From the IMG/VR virus record IMGVR_UViG_3300044513_000330, positions 1 through 29,161 of that record: a stretch of 29,161 bases of DNA, one strand, 5' to 3'. Numbering within the stretch: the first letter of the stretch is position 1; each line of letters begins with the position of its first letter. This DNA comes from a virus (lineage: Duplodnaviria > Caudoviricetes). The translations under genes and the position numbers were made by a program. Shown piece by piece: positions 1 through 22,124 of this stretch. A model generated the notes under the pieces. That model was not told the DNA's origin and made no database searches. It worked only from the letters and a program-made list of their open reading frames with translations.

Positions 1-404
1 CGGACTGACTCTACTTTAGTACCATCTTCAAACAGTGTGTAACCATTACATGTATTCATGTAGAGGATAGATGTCTTTAGATATGGACGATCGTCAGCAT
101 CCATAACATCAATGTGCATACCATGTTCCACCAGTTTATCTGTACCAAGCAAGAAGTTTGCCTTCACTTTCAGTAACGCATAGGGTTGTACTTTCTGAAG
201 GACAGGATACAATAGTTCAATACTACTGTCAACAGGTGACAATCTTTCGTAGAACATGTGAACCATTTGTATATTACGTTGATGATTGTTGCCGTTGTCA
301 TCAACAATCTTTGAAATAGTCCATGGAAAGAATGCTCCTATCATGGTTTTTTGTAGATGTCCAAAGTCTCCTGGTTCCAGGAAATCATCAATAATTTCTA
401 TCAT
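1..404 (-). CDS. 2OG-Fe(II) oxygenase superfamily protein (3' end runs off the window; missing from the ORF track)
   Basis: Manual translation from ATG at 404, which overlaps the upstream TGA (ATGA): MIEIIDDFLEPGDFGHLQKTMIGAFFPW...LLKVKANF...EHGMHIDV...KTSILYMNTCNGYTLFEDGTKVES. It has the HxD iron motif and the 'ILYxNxxxGxTxF' strand typical of cyanophage 2OG oxygenases. Confidence 0.85.
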   Translation of the reverse strand, partial: MIEIIDDFLEPGDFGHLQKTMIGAFFPWTISKIVDDNGNNHQRNIQMVHMFYERLSPVDSSIELLYPVLQKVQPYALLKVKANFLLGTDKLVEHGMHIDVMDADDRPYLKTSILYMNTCNGYTLFEDGTKVESV

Positions 405-2131
405 CGTTCAATAACAATAATATAGACTCCATTCCACCAATCGTCTACATCTTCAGGTGTCTCAGTTGTAATCAGTCGCTTAAATGCAACATGCTTATCT
501 CTCAAGAACTCATCAGTTGCTGACACTACACCCTCAAAGTTTGCATCATCAACAACCAACACATATCCATCACTAGCACATTGATTATGAATATGTTGCA
601 GGTTTGCCCTCATATGATTAGGTTCATTCTCTGCATCATAGAAAACAACCTTCGGAGCATAGTCAGGATTAAACTCAACCTGTGCAATAGGTTTGGCAAC
701 AAGACCAACAGCACAGTTTGGATTGTACCACTTGTTATAGTTTTCTACAAATGTTTCTGCAGGATTCTCTACCTTGAAATCATTACGCAGTTCTTTACGC
801 ATAGGGTAGACAGTCTCATCAGAGAAGTCATCAATAGCATATGCCTTTACTGCTTCGTTACCCATCAACGCAGCAATCAATGTGCTACCTGTATAACATC
901 CAACGTCAGCATATACTGTACCACGTTCACTGCATAAGTTATTCAGTAAATGTCTCACCTTACTAGAAGATAGACCCTTTACATCATATCCTTCTGGTCT
1001 GAAGTTAGAGTTATTATCACATGCACCATCAATAGCACGAGTGACACGTTCTACGAGAGGATTCAATTTAGCACGCTCCTGTTTCTTCAGTTTCGATTCT
1101 ACTACAGACTCACAGAAGTTACAATCCCAACAATCAAACTTACAGTGTTTGATTTTATTTCTCCACAGATTGATTGGTGACTGTGGCATGTCAAGATCTA
1201 CCATGTAGTCTTTGAACTCTGGATACATCAGTTCATCACCATTGTCCCATCGTTCAATAATATCTAGGGACTCTCTAAGGCGCATAGCATCCTCTCTACC
1301 ATGCAGTTTGAATACATCGATGCCATTATCTAAGAACCATTGCCAATCCTCTCTCCAGGGCGGCAGATTAGCACGTTTAAGTTCTACTGATGGATCATAT
1401 GCATCCCAACGTGAACATGAGATACGACTAATCTCACTATTGAAATACTGAGGTTCTGTACCAGTTCTTGTCGAGTTGTACTGATAATGCTCAGGCATAA
1501 TAGGACAACCACCCCAACAATGTTCGTTCACGAGTAACGACAACTCAATCGGGTTACCTTTATCTGCACAGTATTCTTTCGCATCCATGATACGAACCAA
1601 GGCATCTTGATCACGCATGATGTCACGATCCAGATTAATATAATGAAACCCAGCACTAGCAAGAGTGACAATCTCGTTAGGTTTGACCACCTCACGCAGG
1701 ATAGTATTCTTAATCTTTAGATCAGGATATTCTTTCTGGATTTGTCCTGTCATCACCCATGATGTATGGGGTAGAGTAACAGTTCTAACACCAGAATCAT
1801 AGAGGAACTTAAAGTTCGCAATCCATAAGTCTAAGTTCTTCTGATCTGGACGCACCCAAATGTTATTGAATGTTGCAGACAAAGGAATACCTGTTGCCTC
1901 AGAGATTGCCAGGGCATTCTTTGCAGAATCCTTTGCACTCTTCGTTGTCTTGAATACATCACCCATCGCATCTTGCGTAAAGGGTGGCATCCTAGATGTG
2001 AAGTATAGATCGTAAATCAGGTGCTTATATTTGTTGAGGAAAGGAATGAATCCCTCCTCAATATAACCAGGATCAAGTTTTGGGTTTATCGGCAGACTGA
2101 AGACGGCGGTCTGCGACGTTGTTTTCGACAT
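401..2131 (-). CDS. Fusion of a peptidase U32-family-like (Fe-S hydroxylase-type) domain and a C-terminal class I SAM-dependent methyltransferase (Methyltransf_24-like)
   Basis: N-terminal about 350 aa carry U32-like motifs INLDRDIMRD, LLVNEHCWGGCP, ISC, DVFKLHGRE and a terminal CKFDCWDCNFC. C-terminal about 200 aa carry YADVGCYTGST (motif I), AYAIDDFS, VVFYDA and VLVVDDANF. The ATG at 2131 (GGAG upstream) is preferred over the ORF-track start at 2158. Confidence 0.75.
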   Translation of the reverse strand: MSKTTSQTAVFSLPINPKLDPGYIEEGFIPFLNKYKHLIYDLYFTSRMPPFTQDAMGDVFKTTKSAKDSAKNALAISEATGIPLSATFNNIWVRPDQKNLDLWIANFKFLYDSGVRTVTLPHTSWVMTGQIQKEYPDLKIKNTILREVVKPNEIVTLASAGFHYINLDRDIMRDQDALVRIMDAKEYCADKGNPIELSLLVNEHCWGGCPIMPEHYQYNSTRTGTEPQYFNSEISRISCSRWDAYDPSVELKRANLPPWREDWQWFLDNGIDVFKLHGREDAMRLRESLDIIERWDNGDELMYPEFKDYMVDLDMPQSPINLWRNKIKHCKFDCWDCNFCESVVESKLKKQERAKLNPLVERVTRAIDGACDNNSNFRPEGYDVKGLSSSKVRHLLNNLCSERGTVYADVGCYTGSTLIAALMGNEAVKAYAIDDFSDETVYPMRKELRNDFKVENPAETFVENYNKWYNPNCAVGLVAKPIAQVEFNPDYAPKVVFYDAENEPNHMRANLQHIHNQCASDGYVLVVDDANFEGVVSATDEFLRDKHVAFKRLITTETPEDVDDWWNGVYIIVIER

Positions 2132-2945
2132 AATCAGTGAATACTCCAGCGGTGTCAAACATTTCAGGTGGGCGTCCTTCTAACATACTCTCAACTTTCT
2201 CCTCTGCATTTGCTTTGAACTTACCAATGCAATGATTTAGTGCAGTAGAATATGTAAGAGCAAGGTCTGTAACTGCTGCTTGATCTTCAGGATTCATTTG
2301 CAACATAGATTCCAGATTACCTGCTTGGATTCTACCAGTAGTTAGCAGATCAATAGCAGATTGTTTTGCCATACGAGCAATCCAATACTTATGCTCTTCT
2401 TCCTCTACAATGTTGGGATCATCAAACTGTTTTGTGATTGCTTCGATGTCATCAGTGCCAGAGCGTTCTTTAATGATACGCAGGAACTGTTCAATCTCTT
2501 CTTTACATTGACGCAGTTTATTCAACCAAATTTGAGTATCGAGTTTGCAGATTTCAATCTGACACTCAATATCATAACGCTCAAACTCATTTTCTTCTGC
2601 ATCACGTTCTGCTTCAAGACGTGCAATATCATTCAGATTGCGACGATATTGAATCGTAACTTTCTGAAGAGAATTAGTTCTTGCTTGCAACTCCATGATT
2701 GCTTGACGCATCTGTCGCCAAGGAGTTACATGTGATTGCACAACATAATAACGATTTTGAAACTCACTCTGACCAAAAGGAACTTGGTCAGACCATTGCA
2801 TCAATGCTTTGTCAAAGTTATCCAACTCCCATGGGGAGATGTTTTCTAACTGATCTAGAGTTTGATCGATTGTATGACGGAAATCAGAAGCGGATTCCGT
2901 AGACAAAGGGTTCTTTTCTTTCGATGTTTCCTGTTTCATCATCAA
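2073..2945 (-). CDS. Conserved hypothetical coiled-coil protein in the fibre cassette
   Basis: 290-aa ORF with a heptad-rich helical centre (RQAIMELQARTNSLQKV...LNDIARLEAE). It overlaps both neighbours; the exact start is uncertain. Confidence 0.7.
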   Translation of the reverse strand: MMMKQETSKEKNPLSTESASDFRHTIDQTLDQLENISPWELDNFDKALMQWSDQVPFGQSEFQNRYYVVQSHVTPWRQMRQAIMELQARTNSLQKVTIQYRRNLNDIARLEAERDAEENEFERYDIECQIEICKLDTQIWLNKLRQCKEEIEQFLRIIKERSGTDDIEAITKQFDDPNIVEEEEHKYWIARMAKQSAIDLLTTGRIQAGNLESMLQMNPEDQAAVTDLALTYSTALNHCIGKFKANAEEKVESMLEGRPPEMFDTAGVFTDYVENNVADRRLQSADKPKT

Positions 2946-3639
2946 CTATGCATCTGTTGTATTCTAAACATTGTTGGTTGGACATTGCCACACCAAAGTA
3001 ATCTTCAAGGAACACATTTACTTCTGCCATGTTTGAACATGCCTTCAGTTTTGTGCTTACAGATTGCTCACTTACAGCAAGATCATAAACAGAGTCTTTC
3101 CACTCATTATGTTTCTCAACCACTTTAGCAGCAAAGTCTGCCAGTGTCAATCCCCTAAGTTCTGCTAATCTGTCAATCAGTTTGACAGTTACAGTATTAT
3201 CCTCAAGATATGCAGTTGCTTCAGCAAACTGGTCATCCCAGGTTGCATCTTCCAACGTACTATATTTAGAACGTAAAGCAACGTATCTTCTTTCAAAAAT
3301 CTCTTGAGTTGCAAGACGGATTACCGCCTTCATGAATGGAATCGTGTGCTCTTTGACGATTGTAGTATCAACTTCTACCTTATCTTTCAGAGTAGTTCCT
3401 TCCTCATTGACACCATAATCAGATTTCTTAAATCTAGTCTCACCCCAATACTTTGCTCCGAATAGGGCATCCTTTGCAGAAAAGCGAAGATATTTGATGT
3501 GTTGAGGAATATAGTCGAAGAATCTATCTTCAAGGTAAAAATATTCCAGTCCTAAGTTACCACCAAGTTTCTCTCCCCACTGTTCAATGTGAGGAAACTT
3601 TTCAAGATCAATAACAATAACGTCGTTAGTATTTGCCAT
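2884..3639 (-). CDS. Putative tail fibre assembly/chaperone protein
   Basis: C-terminal YSTLEDATWDDQFAEATAY...LIDRLAELRGLTLADFAAKVVEK resembles the 'E..TW..Q..EA....L..IA..RG....LA.KV' pattern of phage fibre-assembly proteins. Its start overlaps the stop of the upstream fibre gene (TGATG). Confidence 0.6.
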   Translation of the reverse strand: MANTNDVIVIDLEKFPHIEQWGEKLGGNLGLEYFYLEDRFFDYIPQHIKYLRFSAKDALFGAKYWGETRFKKSDYGVNEEGTTLKDKVEVDTTIVKEHTIPFMKAVIRLATQEIFERRYVALRSKYSTLEDATWDDQFAEATAYLEDNTVTVKLIDRLAELRGLTLADFAAKVVEKHNEWKDSVYDLAVSEQSVSTKLKACSNMAEVNVFLEDYFGVAMSNQQCLEYNRCIVDDETGNIERKEPFVYGIRF

Positions 3640-5033
3640 CAGTAGTTAGGGATATTTGTACCATAATCATATACTGCAGTTCCAGCGTCATTGACACCAG
3701 AGATAGCAGAAGAAGATGAACAGTGTGCAGAACTCATGCCACCATGACCAGTTGGTGGAGAAGCACCACCAAGGTTGTTGTAAGCATCTGTGCCGTAGTT
3801 CACCTTGAAGGTGTTGTTATTCTGAGAACCATTGTAGTTACCTAAGCAGTAACCCTTTCTCATACCCATTTCAAAGTTTTCCTCACCCATGTTACCGAAG
3901 TTCAAACCTCTTGTCTGAAGTCCAGTTGTATCCTCAACACGCTGATTACCATTCTGGTTGTTATTGCCAGTGCCAACATACATGTGACCTAACATCGTGC
4001 CGAGAATCTTCTTCCATCCGTCACCACCAGGACCATTATCCCAGGTGACCCAAGATTCAGTATTCCATACAAGTGCTTGACGTGTTCCACCACGCTTATA
4101 CCAACCTTTCAGTCTTGCGTTACCACCATGTGTGGGGTCATCACCACCATCAGCATGGTTTTGAGGATAACCAGATGTTCTCATAACATCAGTTTTGAGA
4201 TTCATCGAGTCAGTTCTAGCGTTACCACCACCCAGAAGATAAGAATAACCGCCAGCAAATTCATGGTCTTGGAATGAACCCATCGACCCTCTACTAACAG
4301 TCATATCCCAAGAGTTCTGGTGCGTAATACCCGCCTCAGTTGTCATACTGAAACCAGAAGTATAGTTAGAAGAACCTCTGTAAGTGTTCTCCATCGAGTG
4401 GAAATAATGTCTATTATCTGTAAAAGATCCTGCCATATAAGCACCAGATCTATCCAGAGTATCACCCAAGTTTGTTGATGTATCTGTAGCGTGAACTGTA
4501 CGGTTTACGTTTCTCCATGGTGAACCACTTTGGTATCCACCACCAACATAACCGTGCGTCCAGATTCTACTCATGGTCCAACCAGTTGACGCACCAGAAA
4601 TATCCCAGTAAGCATCAGTTCCATCAGAACGTAATACCGCACCTTCGGTGAAGTCTGGACTGTATCTATCGGCAGATTGGTCGGGAAGTCCACCACCTGC
4701 ACCAGCAATAGGACCCCACTCAACAGCATTCGAACCAGCATTAAAGGCATAACCCTCAAATGTTCTGTCTGTGCTGTTATATCTGAACATGCCCTCAATA
4801 GGAGCACCAGATCTTTGTGCAGTAGTACCTACGGGAACGATTACAGAATCAGTAGTGGCAATGTCGAGAGACGCTCTAGGTGTAGTAGTATTAATACCAA
4901 CTTCACTATTTGTACTGTCAACATACAGTGTGCCAGTATCAAAGTTAAAGTTACCACTAGATTCTAACTGAATGGCAGCAGTACCACCACCTCCACCTAA
5001 AGATACTATTCTGTCAACATTTAATTGAGACAT
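3639..5033 (-). CDS. Virion fibre/receptor-binding protein with GTTAQR module and a Gly/aromatic-rich repeat C-terminal domain (possible beta-propeller)
   Basis: Fibre motif TLYVDSTNSEVGINTTTPRASLDI, shared module VPVGTTAQRSGAPIEGMFRYNS, and repeats HGYVGGGY / YSYLLGGG / HMYVGTG / KGYCLGNY. A late promoter lies just upstream. Confidence 0.7.
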   Translation of the reverse strand: MSQLNVDRIVSLGGGGGTAAIQLESSGNFNFDTGTLYVDSTNSEVGINTTTPRASLDIATTDSVIVPVGTTAQRSGAPIEGMFRYNSTDRTFEGYAFNAGSNAVEWGPIAGAGGGLPDQSADRYSPDFTEGAVLRSDGTDAYWDISGASTGWTMSRIWTHGYVGGGYQSGSPWRNVNRTVHATDTSTNLGDTLDRSGAYMAGSFTDNRHYFHSMENTYRGSSNYTSGFSMTTEAGITHQNSWDMTVSRGSMGSFQDHEFAGGYSYLLGGGNARTDSMNLKTDVMRTSGYPQNHADGGDDPTHGGNARLKGWYKRGGTRQALVWNTESWVTWDNGPGGDGWKKILGTMLGHMYVGTGNNNQNGNQRVEDTTGLQTRGLNFGNMGEENFEMGMRKGYCLGNYNGSQNNNTFKVNYGTDAYNNLGGASPPTGHGGMSSAHCSSSSAISGVNDAGTAVYDYGTNIPNY

Positions 5034-5055: not shown

Positions 5056-5063
5056 TATTTATG
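5056..5063 (-). promoter_or_regulatory. T4-type late promoter (CATAAATA)
   Basis: NATAAATA on the minus strand, about 22 nt upstream of the ATG at 5033 and overlapping the previous stop codon. Confidence 0.6.
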
Positions 5064-6171
5064 CAGGACGTACTAAGACTACTCCTCTCTTCATGTATGT
5101 ATCTTCGTTTCCACTATCTTGATCGGAATGAATCACACAATGCATATTATGTGCGTAGTTTTGACCCAGGTCGATTGTGTACCATGCGTCACCATTATAT
5201 ACATTTGGTTTAGTTCCACCAGCATTATCTCCAGCAAAAGGAGTAAAGTTTCTTACATACTCACTGGTATAACTATTACCTTCTCTTGACCAACAGGTGA
5301 AACGATCACCCATAAATCCACCAGGATTATTACCTTGTCGTCTATGTGAGGGATGTCGTCCTGCAGTGCTAGGGCAACTGTTGCCATCCTGATTACTTAT
5401 GGCAGCGATATAAGTGAAGATATGCTGACCATCACCATCACCAGAGTTATCTCTCATGATAGTCAAACCGTCACCAACACCGCTACTAATACCCAAGAAG
5501 TTTCTACCGTTTATACCATCATTTGAATAATAGTTATACAGGTTAAACTTACACTTAACATATCGGTAAGAGATACCTCTACGATCCATTGTTGCATACC
5601 TAAAGTCACTACCGCCTACATTTCGATAGTAACCATATGTGCCATTGTTGGCGAAGTTACCTTCAGGAGTTACATCTCCCTGAGTGTTAAGTTCTCTACC
5701 AGAAAGTGCTGACGCTTGAGTACCAAAGAATCTAGAAGCACCACCGCCCCAGTTACCTATCAAAATATAATATGGATGTGACTCTAATGGAACAAAGTAT
5801 TCTCTTGCAGTGCCATCAAAATTCAACCAATAGAATCCATCTTGCTGTAAACCAGCATCATATAATCCCTGAACACTTGTTACTGCTTTACCCTCTGTTG
5901 TTCCTCCTGGTGCGCCATCGGCAGCACCAATAAAAGTTGCCCAGTTACTTCCATCATAAAACTCTAGTTCTCCAAGTTCAGTATTGTACCTCAACATTCC
6001 ACCAACAGGAGAACTAGGTCTCTGTGCAGTTGTGCCTACAGGAACAGAGAAAGATGCGCCACTATCCATCTCAATGTTACCAGCAATGATAAGGTTATCA
6101 TTACCCTCAAGATTGATTTTGAAGTTGTTGTCAGATAATGCTCTGAGTTCGTCTACTCTAATAGTGCTCAT
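5059..6171 (-). CDS. Virion fibre/adhesin with GTTAQRP module and a divergent fibrinogen-like C-terminal domain
   Basis: VPVGTTAQRPSSPVGGMLRYNTELGELEFYDGSNW followed by AVTSVQGLYDAGLQQDGFYWLNFDG; GGAG Shine-Dalgarno sequence upstream. Confidence 0.7.
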   Translation of the reverse strand: MSTIRVDELRALSDNNFKINLEGNDNLIIAGNIEMDSGASFSVPVGTTAQRPSSPVGGMLRYNTELGELEFYDGSNWATFIGAADGAPGGTTEGKAVTSVQGLYDAGLQQDGFYWLNFDGTAREYFVPLESHPYYILIGNWGGGASRFFGTQASALSGRELNTQGDVTPEGNFANNGTYGYYRNVGGSDFRYATMDRRGISYRYVKCKFNLYNYYSNDGINGRNFLGISSGVGDGLTIMRDNSGDGDGQHIFTYIAAISNQDGNSCPSTAGRHPSHRRQGNNPGGFMGDRFTCWSREGNSYTSEYVRNFTPFAGDNAGGTKPNVYNGDAWYTIDLGQNYAHNMHCVIHSDQDSGNEDTYMKRGVVLVRPA

Positions 6172-6179
6172 AGTTCTCC

Positions 6180-7190
6180 TTATTTGACAAAAATAAATCC
6201 AGATCTGGGATAACGAACTGTGCCGTTCCAGCGGAATCCGCCAGCAGCAGCATTTCTGTCACCGCTAGAGTTTTGATTGTTGGTGTAAATGCCGAATCCG
6301 ATTGAAGAGTCGTTAGAGTTACACTCGTTCTCGTTGTTCATAGTAATACCAAATCTCATACCAGTAGAACCAGAATCCTGTCTATAGAATCCCACTCTGT
6401 TACAATAAGGTTGGTTATCCCAGTTGTTTCTATGAACACCAACACTCATCATCCATTGCAAAAAGTCCTCACGATCTGGTTGACTCAAATCCTGTCTAGT
6501 ATTAAATGCTTGTCTAGCAGTAACACCAGTCCTAGGAATGTTTCGATTACCATCAGCATGTAACCAGTTATATCCATTCTCCATTGCCATAAGGAATCCT
6601 GTTGTCAGAGTGTAACCATAGTATCCTCTATTCAAAACGTCACCATTATTCAGGTCCACACTTGAACCCTCATTAGTTGTACTTTGCTGATTCCATCTAG
6701 CACCACTGAATGACCAGGGATTAGATGTATCAGCAGGAGTGTTATTGATCTTGGCAACAAGATGATACCCACCAGCATCCATCATACACCAGGTTCTATA
6801 TGCACCAGTACCATGATTTAACCAGTAAGGTCCATCAGGAGCATTCGGATTAGCAGCAAGAATTGCAGCAGCAGACGATGCAGCATTTCCCTGAGTTTTG
6901 CCGATTTGATTTACTGTAGCACCACCACCAAGACCACCACCAGCATCAAACTGTTTCCACTGAGTACCAGTGTAAATCTCAATCTTATTGTCGCTAGTGT
7001 TAAATCTAGTATATCCTGCTAATGCTGTAGAAGGACGCTGAGCAGTTGTACCTCTAGGTAACTGGAATGCTCCAGTATGATCACTATTAAGTAAACTACC
7101 TTCAATATCAAGTATGTGACCAGCGGGAACCGTCACCTGACCTAAGGTCTGGGTGATTCCCGCTAATCCGCTAATAGAAAGTTTACTCAT
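6180..7190 (-). CDS. Virion fibre/adhesin with GTTAQRP module and a fibrinogen/intelectin-like C-terminal domain
   Basis: LPRGTTAQRPSTALAGYTRFNTSDNKIEIYTGTQW, then AASSAAAILAANPNAPDGPYWL...TWCMMDAGGYHLVAKI (fibrinogen-domain N-terminal signature) and RFGITMNNENECNSNDSSIGFG. Confidence 0.75.
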   Translation of the reverse strand: MSKLSISGLAGITQTLGQVTVPAGHILDIEGSLLNSDHTGAFQLPRGTTAQRPSTALAGYTRFNTSDNKIEIYTGTQWKQFDAGGGLGGGATVNQIGKTQGNAASSAAAILAANPNAPDGPYWLNHGTGAYRTWCMMDAGGYHLVAKINNTPADTSNPWSFSGARWNQQSTTNEGSSVDLNNGDVLNRGYYGYTLTTGFLMAMENGYNWLHADGNRNIPRTGVTARQAFNTRQDLSQPDREDFLQWMMSVGVHRNNWDNQPYCNRVGFYRQDSGSTGMRFGITMNNENECNSNDSSIGFGIYTNNQNSSGDRNAAAGGFRWNGTVRYPRSGFIFVK

Positions 7191-7220: not shown

Positions 7221-7802
7221 CTATCCAGGAAACTCTTCTACCCAGGCAGTAACAATGTATTTATCTTTATCGAGTGGGGGATTACCTCGGTGTGCCCATG
7301 CCCAATCACAAGGAAAGATTACAAACTTTCCTGCTTTTGGTTTCACTCTATAATGTTGATATAGAAACTCAGTTTCACCACCCTCAAAATCATCGTTTAA
7401 GTACAGCATGGTTGCTAACTTACGATAAGGTGTATTTGGAGTGGACTCATAATGCCACGAATGATATCCTTCACCTGGTCGAGTCTTCTGTATCTTGCAC
7501 ATCGTGTGCTGAAACTTTCTACCGAGAAGAATATCATATCTATTGCAATAATCACGCAATGCTTGATCACATAGAGTATTCCACTGCTGATATACTCTAC
7601 GATTTAGACTATCGTGAAAAAGTTCTACGGGTAACTCATGTACAAACACCTGAGTATCTTTTGCACCACTCTCGGTGTTACGTTTATGTGTCAACCCATT
7701 TTGATTGATAAACTGAAAATATTCAAGTATCTCAGTGCAATCTAGATCTGTTTCAAACTCAGAGATAAAGTTCTTATTATGCAGACATTGTGTAATTCTC
7801 AT
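7221..7802 (-). CDS. 2OG-Fe(II) oxygenase (prolyl 4-hydroxylase-like)
   Basis: YHSWHYE (HxE), RKLATMLYLNDDFEGGETEF, VKPKAGKFVIFP, WAHRG and KYIVTAW form a classic cyanophage 2OG-Fe(II) oxygenase signature. Confidence 0.92.
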   Translation of the reverse strand: MRITQCLHNKNFISEFETDLDCTEILEYFQFINQNGLTHKRNTESGAKDTQVFVHELPVELFHDSLNRRVYQQWNTLCDQALRDYCNRYDILLGRKFQHTMCKIQKTRPGEGYHSWHYESTPNTPYRKLATMLYLNDDFEGGETEFLYQHYRVKPKAGKFVIFPCDWAWAHRGNPPLDKDKYIVTAWVEEFPG

Positions 7803-7990
7803 TCAGACCATTTATTCAAAGGGCACTTGAATATTTTGAATCTTGCTTTGATAGCAAGTACACATCCGCATTTATTGCAGATGCCTACAGGATTCTTATA
7901 TTCACATTCATCACATACTTTAATCCTTTTGCTGTATAAAGTCAAGTCAGAATCTTCATGATCATAACCAATCAGTTTCGCAACAGGCAT
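7799..7990 (-). CDS. Small Cys-rich putative metal-binding protein (DUF6171-like)
   Basis: RIKVCDECE...CNKCGC...K...CPLNKW pattern; coupled to the oxygenase gene by an ATGA overlap. Confidence 0.75.
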   Translation of the reverse strand: MPVAKLIGYDHEDSDLTLYSKRIKVCDECEYKNPVGICNKCGCVLAIKARFKIFKCPLNKWSE

Positions 7991-7993
7991 AAT

Positions 7994-8866
7994 TTATTTA
8001 ACCCATAAGTAACCATCAGAAGCACCGTTTGTATCTTCTCTGAATCCGCAGTTATTACCTTCCTCAGGGTGTCTACCATATGCAAAGTATGTACCGCCTG
8101 ATGTATGGTGGTCACCGAAACCTCTGGTTCCAGTATTGGGACCTCTATCGTCTAAACTACCTTGATAGGTAGTCGAGATTCTAGTTCTCTCATTATCATT
8201 TGATGCACTATCAAGCAAGTTGACAGTTGCAGCACTAGAGATAAAGACACTCTTGTTAAAGTTAAGTGCTTCCATCCAATATGCGGTGCTTCCAGTATAT
8301 GTAGAGGAGTTACGCAGTGCTTGAATCCAAGAGTCTGCCATCTTGGTAGTAGAAGTGTTAGAAGTTCTGGGTCCAGAAGTTGTAGTAATACGAACAGCAC
8401 TATTGTTCATGTGATCTTGACATGTTGATGTTCTAGCAACAACACACAATGTCCATCCACCACCATTTCTATCATTATCAACATACATTTCGTATGCTAC
8501 CTGATTATCAGGTTGAATCCAATAGTTACCAGATGCTAAACCAGCATTAAAGATCTCTACACCACTTCTAGCAGGATTACTCTCAGTGCCAATCTCTGCA
8601 GCAGGAGGTGTCCTAGGAACCCATACACTACCATTATATACTTCAATATCTTCGGTGGTAGTATTCCACCTTACTGCACCTCTTACTGCACCTCTAGCAC
8701 CGTAAGTTGCATTGTCATGATAATTTTGAGTATTAGAAGGCAAAGGCATGTACTGCTGATTCTGAATAATCAGTTGACTTCCAACACCTAACTCACTGTC
8801 ATGATAGAGAGTAACTCGGTAGTTAGGAAAGTTACCCTCTAAGTTACCGACGTTTAACTTTCCCAT
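7994..8866 (-). CDS. Virion fibre/adhesin with a variant module and a fibrinogen-like C-terminal domain
   Basis: GAVRWNTTTEDIEVYNGSVW, then GTESNPARSGVEIFNAGLASGNYWIQP...MYVDNDRNGGGWTL (fibrinogen-like signature). Confidence 0.75.
   Translation of the reverse strand: MGKLNVGNLEGNFPNYRVTLYHDSELGVGSQLIIQNQQYMPLPSNTQNYHDNATYGARGAVRGAVRWNTTTEDIEVYNGSVWVPRTPPAAEIGTESNPARSGVEIFNAGLASGNYWIQPDNQVAYEMYVDNDRNGGGWTLCVVARTSTCQDHMNNSAVRITTTSGPRTSNTSTTKMADSWIQALRNSSTYTGSTAYWMEALNFNKSVFISSAATVNLLDSASNDNERTRISTTYQGSLDDRGPNTGTRGFGDHHTSGGTYFAYGRHPEEGNNCGFREDTNGASDGYLWVK
8670..8693. repeat. Perfect in-frame 12-bp tandem duplication (cttactgcacct x2) encoding RGAV-RGAV
   Basis: Read directly at 8670-8681 and 8682-8693. 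Confidence 0.85.
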
Positions 8867-9282
8867 TATCTAACACTCCATGCACCACCATTTTCGATAG
8901 TAACAGTAAATCCGTTTGCGATCGTCATAGGACCAGCACTCATACCATTAGCAAACTCTGCACCAGCAGTAGGTCCTACTGTGAGGTTTTCTGAAATGGT
9001 GTTAGCATTGGTTCTAACAACACTATCATCACCAAGAGAAGGACCACCACCAGAAACTGCTGCCCAACCTGCACTACCAGAACCATCATCTGCTTTGTAA
9101 ATCTCAGCAGCGTCAGTATCTGTGTTGAAACGAATCGTACCAATAGAAACGCCAGAAGGTCTCTGTGCTTGAGTACCTGCTGGTAATCTAAACACAGAGT
9201 TAGAGTTCAGGAATGTGAGAGTTGTGATGATTGCTTCGGTTGACGTGGAAATCTGATTTCCACTAATCTTTGATAGTGCCAT
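8866..9282 (-). CDS. Small virion structural protein with GTQAQRP module
   Basis: LPAGTQAQRPSGVSIGTIRFNTDTDAAEIY and C-terminal TISENLTVG...NGMSAGPMTIANGFTVTIENGGAWSV, typical of cyanomyovirus tail-associated proteins; GGAG upstream. Confidence 0.75.
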   Translation of the reverse strand: MALSKISGNQISTSTEAIITTLTFLNSNSVFRLPAGTQAQRPSGVSIGTIRFNTDTDAAEIYKADDGSGSAGWAAVSGGGPSLGDDSVVRTNANTISENLTVGPTAGAEFANGMSAGPMTIANGFTVTIENGGAWSVR

Positions 9283-17697: not shown

Positions 17698-17716
17698 TGG
17701 GGTATATGGTGAACAA

Positions 17717-17788
17717 CTCCCCAGGTAGGATTTGAACCTACGACCAATCGATTAACAGTCGATGGCTCTGCCGCTGAGCTACTGAGGA
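17717..17788 (-). tRNA. trnN: tRNA-Asn (GTT)
   Basis: TCCTCAGTAGCTCAGCGGCAGAGCCATCGACTGTTAATCGATTGGTCGTAGGTTCAAATCCTACCTGGGGAG folds as a cloverleaf; no encoded CCA. Confidence 0.95.
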
Positions 17789-17835
17789 ATGAAGGGAGGC
17801 GCTCTTTCTACACAGAGTCTTTTGTACTCCTCCCA

Positions 17836-17908
17836 TGGAGAATAGCGGACTCGAACCGCTGACATCCTGCTTGCAAAGCAGGCGCTCTACCAACTGAGCT
17901 AATTCCCC
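17836..17908 (-). tRNA. trnA: tRNA-Ala (TGC)
   Basis: GGGGAATTAGCTCAGTTGGTAGAGCGCCTGCTTTGCAAGCAGGATGTCAGCGGTTCGAGTCCGCTATTCTCCA; the G3:U70 identity pair is present. Confidence 0.96.
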
Positions 17909-17912
17909 AAGG

Positions 17913-17984
17913 AGCCCCTGACAAGATTTGAACTTGCGACATCGGCTTTACAAAAGCCGCGCTCTACCACTGAGCTACGGGGGC
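17913..17984 (-). tRNA. trnT: tRNA-Thr (TGT)
   Basis: GCCCCCGTAGCTCAGTGGTAGAGCGCGGCTTTTGTAAAGCCGATGTCGCAAGTTCAAATCTTGTCAGGGGCT; one C6:A67 mismatch in the acceptor stem. Confidence 0.93.
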
Positions 17985-18041
17985 GAAGGGGGACCGAAGT
18001 CCCATCCCGACCAGAGCGAGTTTCAAGTCATCTCGGGACTA

Positions 18042-18126
18042 TAGGAGTAGAGAGACTTGAACTCTCACGAGGTTAATCCTCAACAGATTTTAAGTCTGGT
18101 GCGTCTACCGATTCCGCCACACTCCC
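18042..18126 (-). tRNA. trnL: tRNA-Leu (TAA)
   Basis: GGGAGTGTGGCGGAATCGGTAGACGCACCAGACTTAAAATCTGTTGAGGATTAACCTCGTGAGAGTTCAAGTCTCTCTACTCCTA; long variable arm. Confidence 0.95.
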
Positions 18127-18312
18127 ATTGATATGGAGTACACCAATTTGTTTGGTGTTAGCAACTTCCCAAGTAGGGGGGTGAAAAGCACAATACTCAT
18201 TGAATGTGATCTTCATCTCCTTATCGGTTAGACTAGCATTCCTTGCTGCTTTTGGCAAGTTCCACTTTGCACTAAACAACATTTCCATTGATTGACGTGT
18301 TTTAGGTCTCAT
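18073..18312 (-). CDS. Hypothetical protein whose 3' end overlaps tRNA-Leu
   Basis: MRPKTRQSMEMLFSAKWNLPKAARNASLTDKEMKITFNEYC; coupled to the upstream gene. Confidence 0.7.
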   Translation of the reverse strand: MRPKTRQSMEMLFSAKWNLPKAARNASLTDKEMKITFNEYCAFHPPTWEVANTKQIGVLHINGSVAESVDAPDLKSVED

Positions 18313-22052: not shown

Positions 22053-22124
22053 TGCCCGAAGACGGGATCGAACCGCCGACAATCTCGGTGTAAACGAGGT
22101 GCTCTACCGCTGAGCTATTCGGGC
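22053..22124 (-). tRNA. trnV: tRNA-Val (TAC)
   Basis: GCCCGAATAGCTCAGCGGTAGAGCACCTCGTTTACACCGAGATTGTCGGCGGTTCGATCCCGTCTTCGGGCA folds as a cloverleaf. Confidence 0.94.

Follow-up and report, generated by a model that had tools for sequence, protein, structure and literature searches.

The fusion gene and its cassette

The window, by which we mean the whole stretch of 29,161 nucleotides (nt) analysed here (positions 1 to 29,161 of IMG/VR record IMGVR_UViG_3300044513_000330), is a fragment of a marine T4-like cyanophage. Near its left end lies a gene whose product joins a U32-like barrel to an O-methyltransferase-like domain that would use S-adenosylmethionine (SAM). Four genes overlap or abut at this locus and encode a propeller fibre, a chaperone-like protein, a helical partner and, last, the fusion enzyme (Table 1). 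The family to which the fusion enzyme belongs is U32-like but divergent, and occurs mostly in viruses; its cysteine layout is distinctive, an O-methyltransferase is fused to the barrel or encoded next to it, and a cassette of fibre genes is tightly linked. A literature search, with most subscription journals outside its reach, found no description of this U32-like/methyltransferase family. PMC12801897, on another phage, has no bearing on the gene.

Table 1. Features of the fusion gene, its cassette and the adjoining gene (window coordinates; aa, amino acids; pLDDT, predicted local distance difference test)
Feature	Position	Strand	Remarks
U32-like/O-methyltransferase fusion gene	401..2131	-	576 aa; T4-GC 354; phrog_1458
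U32-like TIM barrel with C-terminal cysteine subdomain, residues 10-350	1082..2104	-	model pLDDT 91.3; 5D88 top PDB match
Barrel cysteines C205, C209, C239 (CX3CX29C), after predicted strand 7	1415..1519	-	invariant 60/60
KLHGRE after predicted strand 8	1292..1309	-	K..GR kept as in U32 KIEGR (seen in E. coli)
CX3CX2CX2C motif (C330, C334, C337, C340)	1112..1144	-	conserved without exception in fused, stand-alone and distant homologues
Class I SAM-dependent O-methyltransferase-like domain, residues 358-576	404..1060	-	fold match; PF13578 in relatives
SAM-binding motif I, DVGCYTG	887..907	-	G411, G415, D434 invariant in 228 fused genes
Acidic metal-site-like residues D499 (YDAENE), D528-D529-A-N531	539..640	-	His502 replaced by Asn in S-RIM2 clade
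Helical, coiled-coil-like partner gene	2073..2906	-	T4-GC 353; phrog_1409; overlaps fusion gene start
Assembly-chaperone-like gene	2884..3639	-	T4-GC 352; phrog_1604
Fibre-like protein, C-terminal Kelch-like repeat	3639..5033	-	T4-GC 351; phrog_1417; N-terminal module common to fibre-region neighbours
T4-type late-promoter-like ATAAATA	5056..5062	-	23 nt ahead of propeller gene
Downstream gene cut by window end	1..404	-	phrog_274; optional neighbour of fusion gene

The fusion protein shares 99.3-99.7% identity with a hypothetical protein of Synechococcus phage S-RIM2 (63 records). It matches phrog_1458 (E 0) and phrog_36869 (E 4e-69), with no function assigned in either, and T4-GC 354 is the annotation label of the gene in P-HM2 and S-ShM2. 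The full-length model has a pLDDT of 92.7 and a predicted template modelling score (pTM) of 0.89. Every motif quoted in the original prediction, which was made from the sequence of the window alone, was recovered by translation of the gene: NEHCWGGCP (C205, C209), ISCSRW (C239), KLHGRE (275-280), CKFDCWDCNFC (C330, C334, C337, C340), DVGCYTG (409-415) and YDAENE (498-503).

A later start has been used for this gene elsewhere. The RefSeq S-RIM2 orthologue (NC_020859.1 SWTG_00017) starts at what is Met56 of the fusion protein and is 521 aa long, and the phrog_1458 model begins at residue 56 and therefore lacks the first 55 residues. The start at 2131 is preferred because residues 11-55 are conserved and make up the first two predicted barrel strands; the start at Met56 is likely mis-called. 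Contigs from an RNA library (X1), which cannot tell RNA from DNA, cover 482-2152 with 7 differences, and libraries X2 and X3 hold small pieces of the region only.

Among the scored candidates the family comprised 1,906 clusters at 90% identity. A scan of species genomes returned one contig, L085 (10 kb, from a Dehalococcoidia metagenome-assembled genome), with genes resembling those of the fibre region of a cyanophage; it may be a phage contig binned in error. A stand-alone homologue (P0263), for which there was no plasmid match, lies on a 6.4-Mb contig and is probably part of a bacterial chromosome or prophage. The barrel was also seen fused to DUF7483 (PF24299) in P0244, and with unannotated N-terminal extensions of about 200 aa in P0257, P0349 and P0361.

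Two of the cassette labels are our own. The product of 3639..5033 is one which we take to be a propeller from its repeat pattern, with no family match or fold behind the label, and that of 2884..3639 is called chaperone-like after its WxxQxxEA motif, with no family match. No family could be assigned to the helical partner from the ESM Atlas (best 0.79). Among non-redundant copies of the propeller, Y199 and E384 were present in 73 of 73 and Y167 in 72 of 73. The heptamer ATAAATA, which resembles a T4-type late promoter, occurs close to the start of the propeller gene in 124 of 172 loci, compared with 0 of 239 at U32-like gene starts. Across the window it was not enriched (8 found, 5.6 expected), and all 8 copies are on the coding strand. 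No minus-strand terminator-like site was found between 5056-5062 and 401. The four genes are likely a late-promoter cassette. A sigma-70-like site at 2158-2130 was considered and rejected; such sites were not above chance (11 found, 20.9 expected) and this one overlaps the start codon.

The N-terminal half, a probable remote relative of U32 proteins

The N-terminal half was modelled by AlphaFold2 (residues 1-352, 100-sequence alignment) as a TIM barrel. The top PDB match by Foldseek was the U32 protein Mk0906 (5D88), at an E value of 8.6e-7 that was narrowly better than those of other barrels. VIA-align against 48,161 chains also placed 5D88 first, with a Z score of 16.5 and a root-mean-square deviation (rmsd) of 3.3 over 226 aligned residues, the next barrel scoring 12.3. 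The U32-like domain originally predicted is thus upheld at the level of the modelled fold. Some clusters among the ESM Atlas neighbours have PF01136 in 20% of their members. Alignment by hhalign of 60 homologues with E. coli TrhP, RlhA, UbiU and UbiV was weak (probability 59%, E 9e-5, 113 columns) and limited to residues 62-182, where KNT was paired with HLS and LDR with LSR.

At the curated cut-off, PF01136 was matched by none of the fusion protein, the 100 aligned members and 75 distant homologues. Searches of Pfam, NCBIfam and PDB sequences returned no U32 match, the profile had no PDB sequence match, and neither Peptidase_U32_C nor DUF3656 was matched by the fusion protein. Both Pfam families named in the original prediction, PF01136 and PF13578, were unmatched by the fusion protein itself. 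We read the N-terminal half as remotely homologous to U32 proteins. Because a PF01136 match and the U32 cysteine spacing were both looked for and not found, we call it U32-like, not a member of the family.

Several residues of the barrel core do correspond. K275, R279 and R169 take the places of the basic residues of the U32 KIEGR and SRE motifs. K275, H277, G278 and R279 are invariant in 234 homologues, and K275, G278 and R279 are present in at least 90% of 60 diverse ones. The essential glutamate of strand 7 (TrhP E162, RlhA E161) has S198 as its apparent counterpart in an alignment by eye, with the near-invariant E203 five residues on.

A TrhP query matched canonical U32 genes in 44 records of the phage collection, many of them unannotated fragments; none of the 44 was a cyanophage or Ralstonia phage, and genes of the fusion family were not retrieved. 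The best predicted viral structure outside the family was A0A3G3MCS7, a 269-aa 'Peptidase' of Escherichia phage OLB35 (E 1e-10), a model-based match which suggests another phage U32-like lineage. Two other identities were discarded. A weak radical SAM match (NCBIfam, residues 322-365, E 0.011) spans the cysteine motif only while the barrel matches U32, and matches of the full-length model to pyruvate kinases in Foldseek (rmsd of about 24) are a two-domain artefact.

Seven invariant cysteines and candidate metal sites

Conservation was assessed in 234 homologues, 175 fused (at least 450 aa) and 59 stand-alone (<400 aa), with 6 of 240 sequences outside both length classes. C209, C239, C330, C334, C337 and C340 were invariant in all 234, and C205 was present in 174 of 175 fused and 59 of 59 stand-alone proteins. 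A set of 60 diverse homologues of 23-43% identity was drawn from a search of 1.84 billion representatives, and there the seven cysteines were the sole invariant columns. The non-canonical cysteines of the original prediction are conserved in both sets.

Most cellular U32 proteins carry CX6CX15CX3/4C for one [4Fe-4S] cluster, and UbiV and two U32 subfamilies also deviate from that motif (PMC6747719). The spacing here, CX3CX29C plus CX3CX2CX2C, does not follow it. By eye, from secondary structure, C205 and C209 follow strand 7 as do TrhP C170 and C177, C239 lies in the insertion between strands 7 and 8 as do TrhP C193 and C197, and K275-x-x-G-R279 follows strand 8 as does KIEGR. By this analogy C205, C209 and C239 are likely ligands of a U32-type cluster. 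In RlhA two C-terminal cysteines, C580 and C611, are essential too (PMC5727448). One cluster takes four ligands and the invariant cysteines number seven, which makes a second metal site (Fe-S or zinc) plausible, with CX3CX2CX2C the candidate.

The methyltransferase-like domain

Residues from about 371 to 576 aligned by VIA-align with TomG (Z 16.8), MeT1 (16.6), SafC (16.4) and TrmR (16.0), and a precorrin methyltransferase tied at 16.6. The class I methyltransferase proposed originally is accordingly predicted to have an O-methyltransferase fold near TrmR and catechol-type enzymes. PF13578 was matched (E up to 0.1) in 45 of 100 aligned members, and its cut-off was passed by homologues P0058, P0084 and P0121 and by the split gene of locus L088. 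Like cation-dependent O-methyltransferases, the domain combines a modelled Rossmann fold (Z 15-17) with SAM motif I and a set of residues resembling their Asp/Asp/Asn(Asp) metal site.

None of 228 distinct fused genes departs from D499, D528, D529 and N531, which we infer to be equivalent to D133, D159 and N160 of TrmR. These TrmR residues are Mg ligands, and TrmR is still active in vitro without Mg (PMC6158493). The position three residues past D499 is far less constant. It is His in 0 of 57 close relatives compared with 115 of 118 distant ones, and His502 is found in 124 of the 228 fused genes. Its occupant in the S-RIM2 clade is Asn, Val or Ile, and the fusion protein has N502. A His or Lys three residues past the first metal Asp is the general base in cation-dependent O-methyltransferases.

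By sequence, both domains are under purifying selection. The ratio of nonsynonymous to synonymous substitution rates (dN/dS) was 0.090 for the His-less methyltransferase (36 non-overlapping pairs), 0.089 for the barrel in the same pairs, and 0.091 for His-bearing methyltransferases (32 pairs). The activity of this domain had been questioned on account of YDAENE, and that caution holds as far as the His is concerned, which is gone in 57 of 57 close relatives. However, the domain is not decaying. Its low dN/dS argues that the His-less domain does something, perhaps without the usual base.

Co-inheritance across phages

In total, 246 loci were anchored on the U32-like gene, and the 151 with at least 4.5 kb upstream were informative. 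The helical partner was present within 4.5 kb upstream of the enzyme in all 151. The propeller was within this distance in 147 and further up in the remaining 4, and the chaperone-like gene was within it in 139, further upstream in 4 and undetected in 8. The methyltransferase was fused to the barrel in 143 of 151. The reverse search gave a comparable result. Among 80 loci anchored on the partner, the enzyme was present in 59, 20 were too short, and one that was long enough lacked it (59 of 60 informative loci). In that sole exception, L204, the partner is followed directly by a permease, and no U32-like gene occurs in 7.9 kb downstream.

Across 50,697 phage records the enzyme had 126 matches, 63 of them S-RIM2, and the partner 126, with the same tallies when compared by organism name, not record by record. 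Matches to the propeller numbered 123, to the chaperone-like gene 112 and to the permease 12. P-HM2 carries the cassette enzyme, and the co-isolated P-HM1 was not among the matches. The Ralstonia jumbo phages RP12 and RP31 have the same cassette without the methyltransferase and with a DUF401 permease.

The set of cassette genes is kept even where their order is rearranged and where the methyltransferase is a fusion partner, a separate gene or missing. In some loci the helper order is swapped, the methyltransferase is separate, and genes for a radical SAM protein, a barrel-like membrane protein and the permease are added; radical SAM genes lie inside the cassette in a freshwater-type subgroup. 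Within 4 kb downstream, 147 loci had a 2-oxoglutarate (2OG) oxygenase in 70, a DUF401 permease in 61, a barrel-like membrane protein in 20 and a halogenase in 19. A ferredoxin gene follows the enzyme gene in only 3 of the 147, and ferredoxin is thus not a fixed partner.

An expanded cassette was observed at L088 (1322-10526; also L205-L254 and L414), with two propellers, a partner, a chaperone-like gene, an oxygenase, a U32-like gene, a separate methyltransferase, an unannotated barrel-like membrane protein, a DUF401 permease and a radical SAM protein that has a cysteine-rich C-terminus. At L078 (13316-14101), L122 (13362-14117) and L110 (12862-13437), the partner or chaperone-like gene is present a second time, in divergent form, a few kb downstream of the first cassette.

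A distant clade of about 380-470 aa (L334-L413) retains all seven cysteines. Judged by eye, the surroundings in its 80 loci were glycine-rich fibre-like genes (29 loci), glycosyltransferase-like genes (about 10) and clamp-loader or other replication genes (about 20). Halogenase genes are among the neighbours in this clade too, and L390 has two tandem U32-like copies.

A proposed function and its alternatives

Context is the strongest clue to the function of the fusion enzyme, whose hydroxylation and methylation we infer by analogy. Co-inheritance together with likely late expression points to the fibre tip or its ligand as the target. We tentatively favour a reading in which the enzyme would hydroxylate and then methylate the propeller fibre tip, or a ligand at the tip, during late virion assembly. 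C205, C209 and C239 with a distal ligand would hold a U32-type [4Fe-4S] cluster, and CX3CX2CX2C would give that distal ligand, a second, electron-relay cluster, or both. The barrel would insert oxygen without O2, from prephenate, as proposed for cellular U32 proteins. A ring C-H would become C-OH and then C-OCH3, the C-terminal domain methylating the new hydroxyl with SAM. The substrate, presented by the helical partner, could be an aromatic group on the propeller fibre encoded three genes upstream, for which the near-invariant Y167 and Y199 are candidate sites, or a small ligand at the tip.

The scheme draws on the modelled folds, the invariant cysteines, the retained acidic site, and the co-inheritance of the cassette behind its late-promoter-like site, and its chemistry follows that of cellular U32 proteins. 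According to PMC10990095, aromatic C-H bonds are hydroxylated without O2 in a process that requires cellular U32 proteins and takes its oxygen from prephenate, and the mechanism proposed there requires an unidentified electron acceptor. Other tailoring-type genes (2OG oxygenases, halogenases, radical SAM) are inserted into the cassette, which also favours tailoring of the fibre. PMC5468394 reports 32 proteins from RP31 virions, among them the tail fibre ORF150 and a collagen-like protein, ORF140, whose gene lies immediately upstream of the cassette. Neither the RP31 enzyme nor the helpers are among those 32, which for the enzyme fits a role at the assembly stage.

A number of observations weigh against tailoring of the fibre tip. 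The counted loci are partly redundant, and their numbers therefore overstate independence. S-ShM2 has the enzyme 13 genes away from the partner. None of 80 distant-clade loci has a propeller, partner or chaperone-like gene, and a methyltransferase is nearby in 1; with about 20 of these loci among replication genes, the barrel is not confined to fibre cassettes. PF01136 and the four-cysteine motif of U32 proteins are both missing, and the S-RIM2 clade has lost the methyltransferase His. The literature examined reports no U32 protein that modifies a protein, and direct hydroxylase activity of a U32 protein in vitro was yet to be demonstrated as of 2024 (PMC10990095). The RP31 propeller, ORF139, was undetected in virions; since 17 of 28 predicted structural proteins were recovered there, such non-detection is weak evidence (PMC5468394). 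An O2-independent Fe-S enzyme inside an oxygen-producing host is unexplained, and the permease (61 of 147) and membrane barrel (20 of 147) suit a small molecule better than a protein.

The latter genes are what would be expected if the enzyme turned a host metabolite into a diffusible methoxy-aromatic that serves as a signal, metal chelator or receptor mimic, with the permease or membrane barrel as transporter and the propeller as binder. The permease is DUF401/CitMHS-like and in RP12 directly follows the enzyme, halogenase and radical SAM genes are close by, the nearest methyltransferase folds (TomG, SafC, catechol O-methyltransferases) use small aromatics, and the propeller retains a polar and aromatic residue set resembling a ligand pocket. 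However, the permease is optional (12 phage records against 126) and the constant partners are fibre-type proteins, not biosynthetic enzymes, which makes a diffusible product unlikely. It is slightly less likely still that the diverged barrel is an Fe-S or zinc redox or metal-delivery factor for fibre assembly, with the methyltransferase separate or only SAM-binding. A CX2CX2C motif is able to hold either zinc or a ferredoxin-type cluster, the by-eye alignment seems to place Ser198 where TrhP has E162, and the methyltransferase is absent in the RP12 clade and His-less in the fusion protein. The cysteine spacing is also unlike all eight U32 motifs summarised from PMC6747719. Against such a role, K275, R279 and R169 match the basic residues of KIEGR and SRE, and an O-methyltransferase fused in nearly all informative loci suits a hydroxyl-forming step.

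The pair of domains is that of the B. subtilis trhP1-trhP2-trmR operon (PMC6599085), and TrmR is among the close folds. A single-chain equivalent would convert wobble U34 of tRNA to 5-hydroxyuridine (ho5U) and then 5-methoxyuridine (mo5U), or hydroxylate rRNA, and so tune late translation. The window encodes tRNA-Ala(UGC), tRNA-Thr(UGU) and tRNA-Val(UAC), and such tRNAs carry mo5U in B. subtilis (PMC6158493). This RNA target, implied by the original prediction, is improbable. The gene is tied to the fibre cassette, and an RNA target leaves its near-invariant link to the propeller and partner unexplained. P-SSM4 and P-HM2 have the gene and encode no tRNAs (PMC3037559), though a host tRNA could be the substrate. 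The missing Peptidase_U32_C and DUF3656 matches and the failure of the TrhP query to reach these genes in phage records point the same way. A literal U32 peptidase, cleaving or maturing collagen-like or other fibre proteins, is very improbable. Collagenase activity has been reported for PrtC and HP0169 (cited in PMC5727448) and a collagen-like gene stands ahead of the cassette in RP12, but the characterised U32 subfamilies are Fe-S hydroxylation factors (PMC5727448, PMC10990095, PMC6747719), and proteolysis needs neither seven invariant cysteines nor a fused O-methyltransferase.

Tailoring of the fibre tip or its ligand is therefore kept as the preferred, tentative reading. Its most specific form, phage-wide tailoring of virions by an O2-independent U32-like enzyme that has two clusters and a fused methyltransferase and puts methoxy-tyrosine or a similar group on the conserved propeller tip via a dedicated adaptor, is doubtful. 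If true, it would be the first U32-type enzyme acting on a protein, and the modification would be a chemical determinant of host recognition. If the enzyme does act on the fibre tip, the host range of phages would rest on a post-translational modification, and there would be a testable role for the oxygenase, halogenase and radical SAM genes that are so frequent around tail fibres. The majority of U32 subfamilies have yet to be characterised, and the present family is abundant and still annotated as hypothetical. One chain with its own methyltransferase, and possibly its own relay cluster, would be a convenient system for reconstituting U32 chemistry because SAM turnover could report hydroxylation.

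Other features of the window

Records name the truncated gene at the window end either 'DNA endonuclease V' (phrog_274, denV) or 'tail fiber protein'. Within its homologue cluster, a member matches PF13640 below cut-off, which suggests that the gene is likely a 2OG-Fe(II) oxygenase. An N-terminal 'GTTAQRP' module is common to the propeller and several genes at 5059-7190 and 7994-9282, and their C-terminal domains differ. RNA-library contigs of a close relative diverge most at 5279-5917 and 7427-8592. Also in the fibre region, a 63-aa cysteine-rich DUF6171 gene (7799-7990) overlaps the start of a 2OG-Fe(II) oxygenase gene (7221-7802). Five tRNA genes are present at 17716-18127 and 22053-22124: Asn(GUU), Ala(UGC), Thr(UGU), Leu(UAA) and Val(UAC).

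Comparison with known systems

The fusion protein resembles cellular U32 proteins (UbiU/UbiV, TrhP, RlhA; Mk0906) in its predicted TIM barrel with 5D88 as best match, in cysteines after strand 7 and K..GR after strand 8, and in a weak profile match over 62-182; like RlhA, it has extra C-terminal cysteines. It differs from them in having no PF01136 match, CX3CX29C in place of CX6CX15CX3/4C, the added CX3CX2CX2C and seven invariant cysteines. Unlike them, its family also has a fused methyltransferase, is mostly viral and is linked to a fibre cassette.

In B. subtilis the U32 proteins TrhP1 and TrhP2 are paired with TrmR to make mo5U (PMC6599085). The fusion protein likewise combines a U32-type protein with a catechol-type O-methyltransferase, whose acidic triad is as TrmR D133/D159/N160. 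However, it is one polypeptide without TrhP-level sequence similarity, is linked to fibre genes and occurs in phages without tRNA genes. The C-terminal domain shares with Methyltransf_24 (PF13578) and the cation-dependent O-methyltransferases a Rossmann fold, SAM motif I and the invariant D499/D528/D529/N531, and PF13578 is matched in many fusion homologues. It departs from them in the Asn, Val or Ile that replaces His in the S-RIM2 clade, and the fusion protein itself falls below PF13578. Among phage gene families, phrog_1458 and phrog_36869 (T4-GC 354) are the fusion family itself, with no fold or function assigned there.

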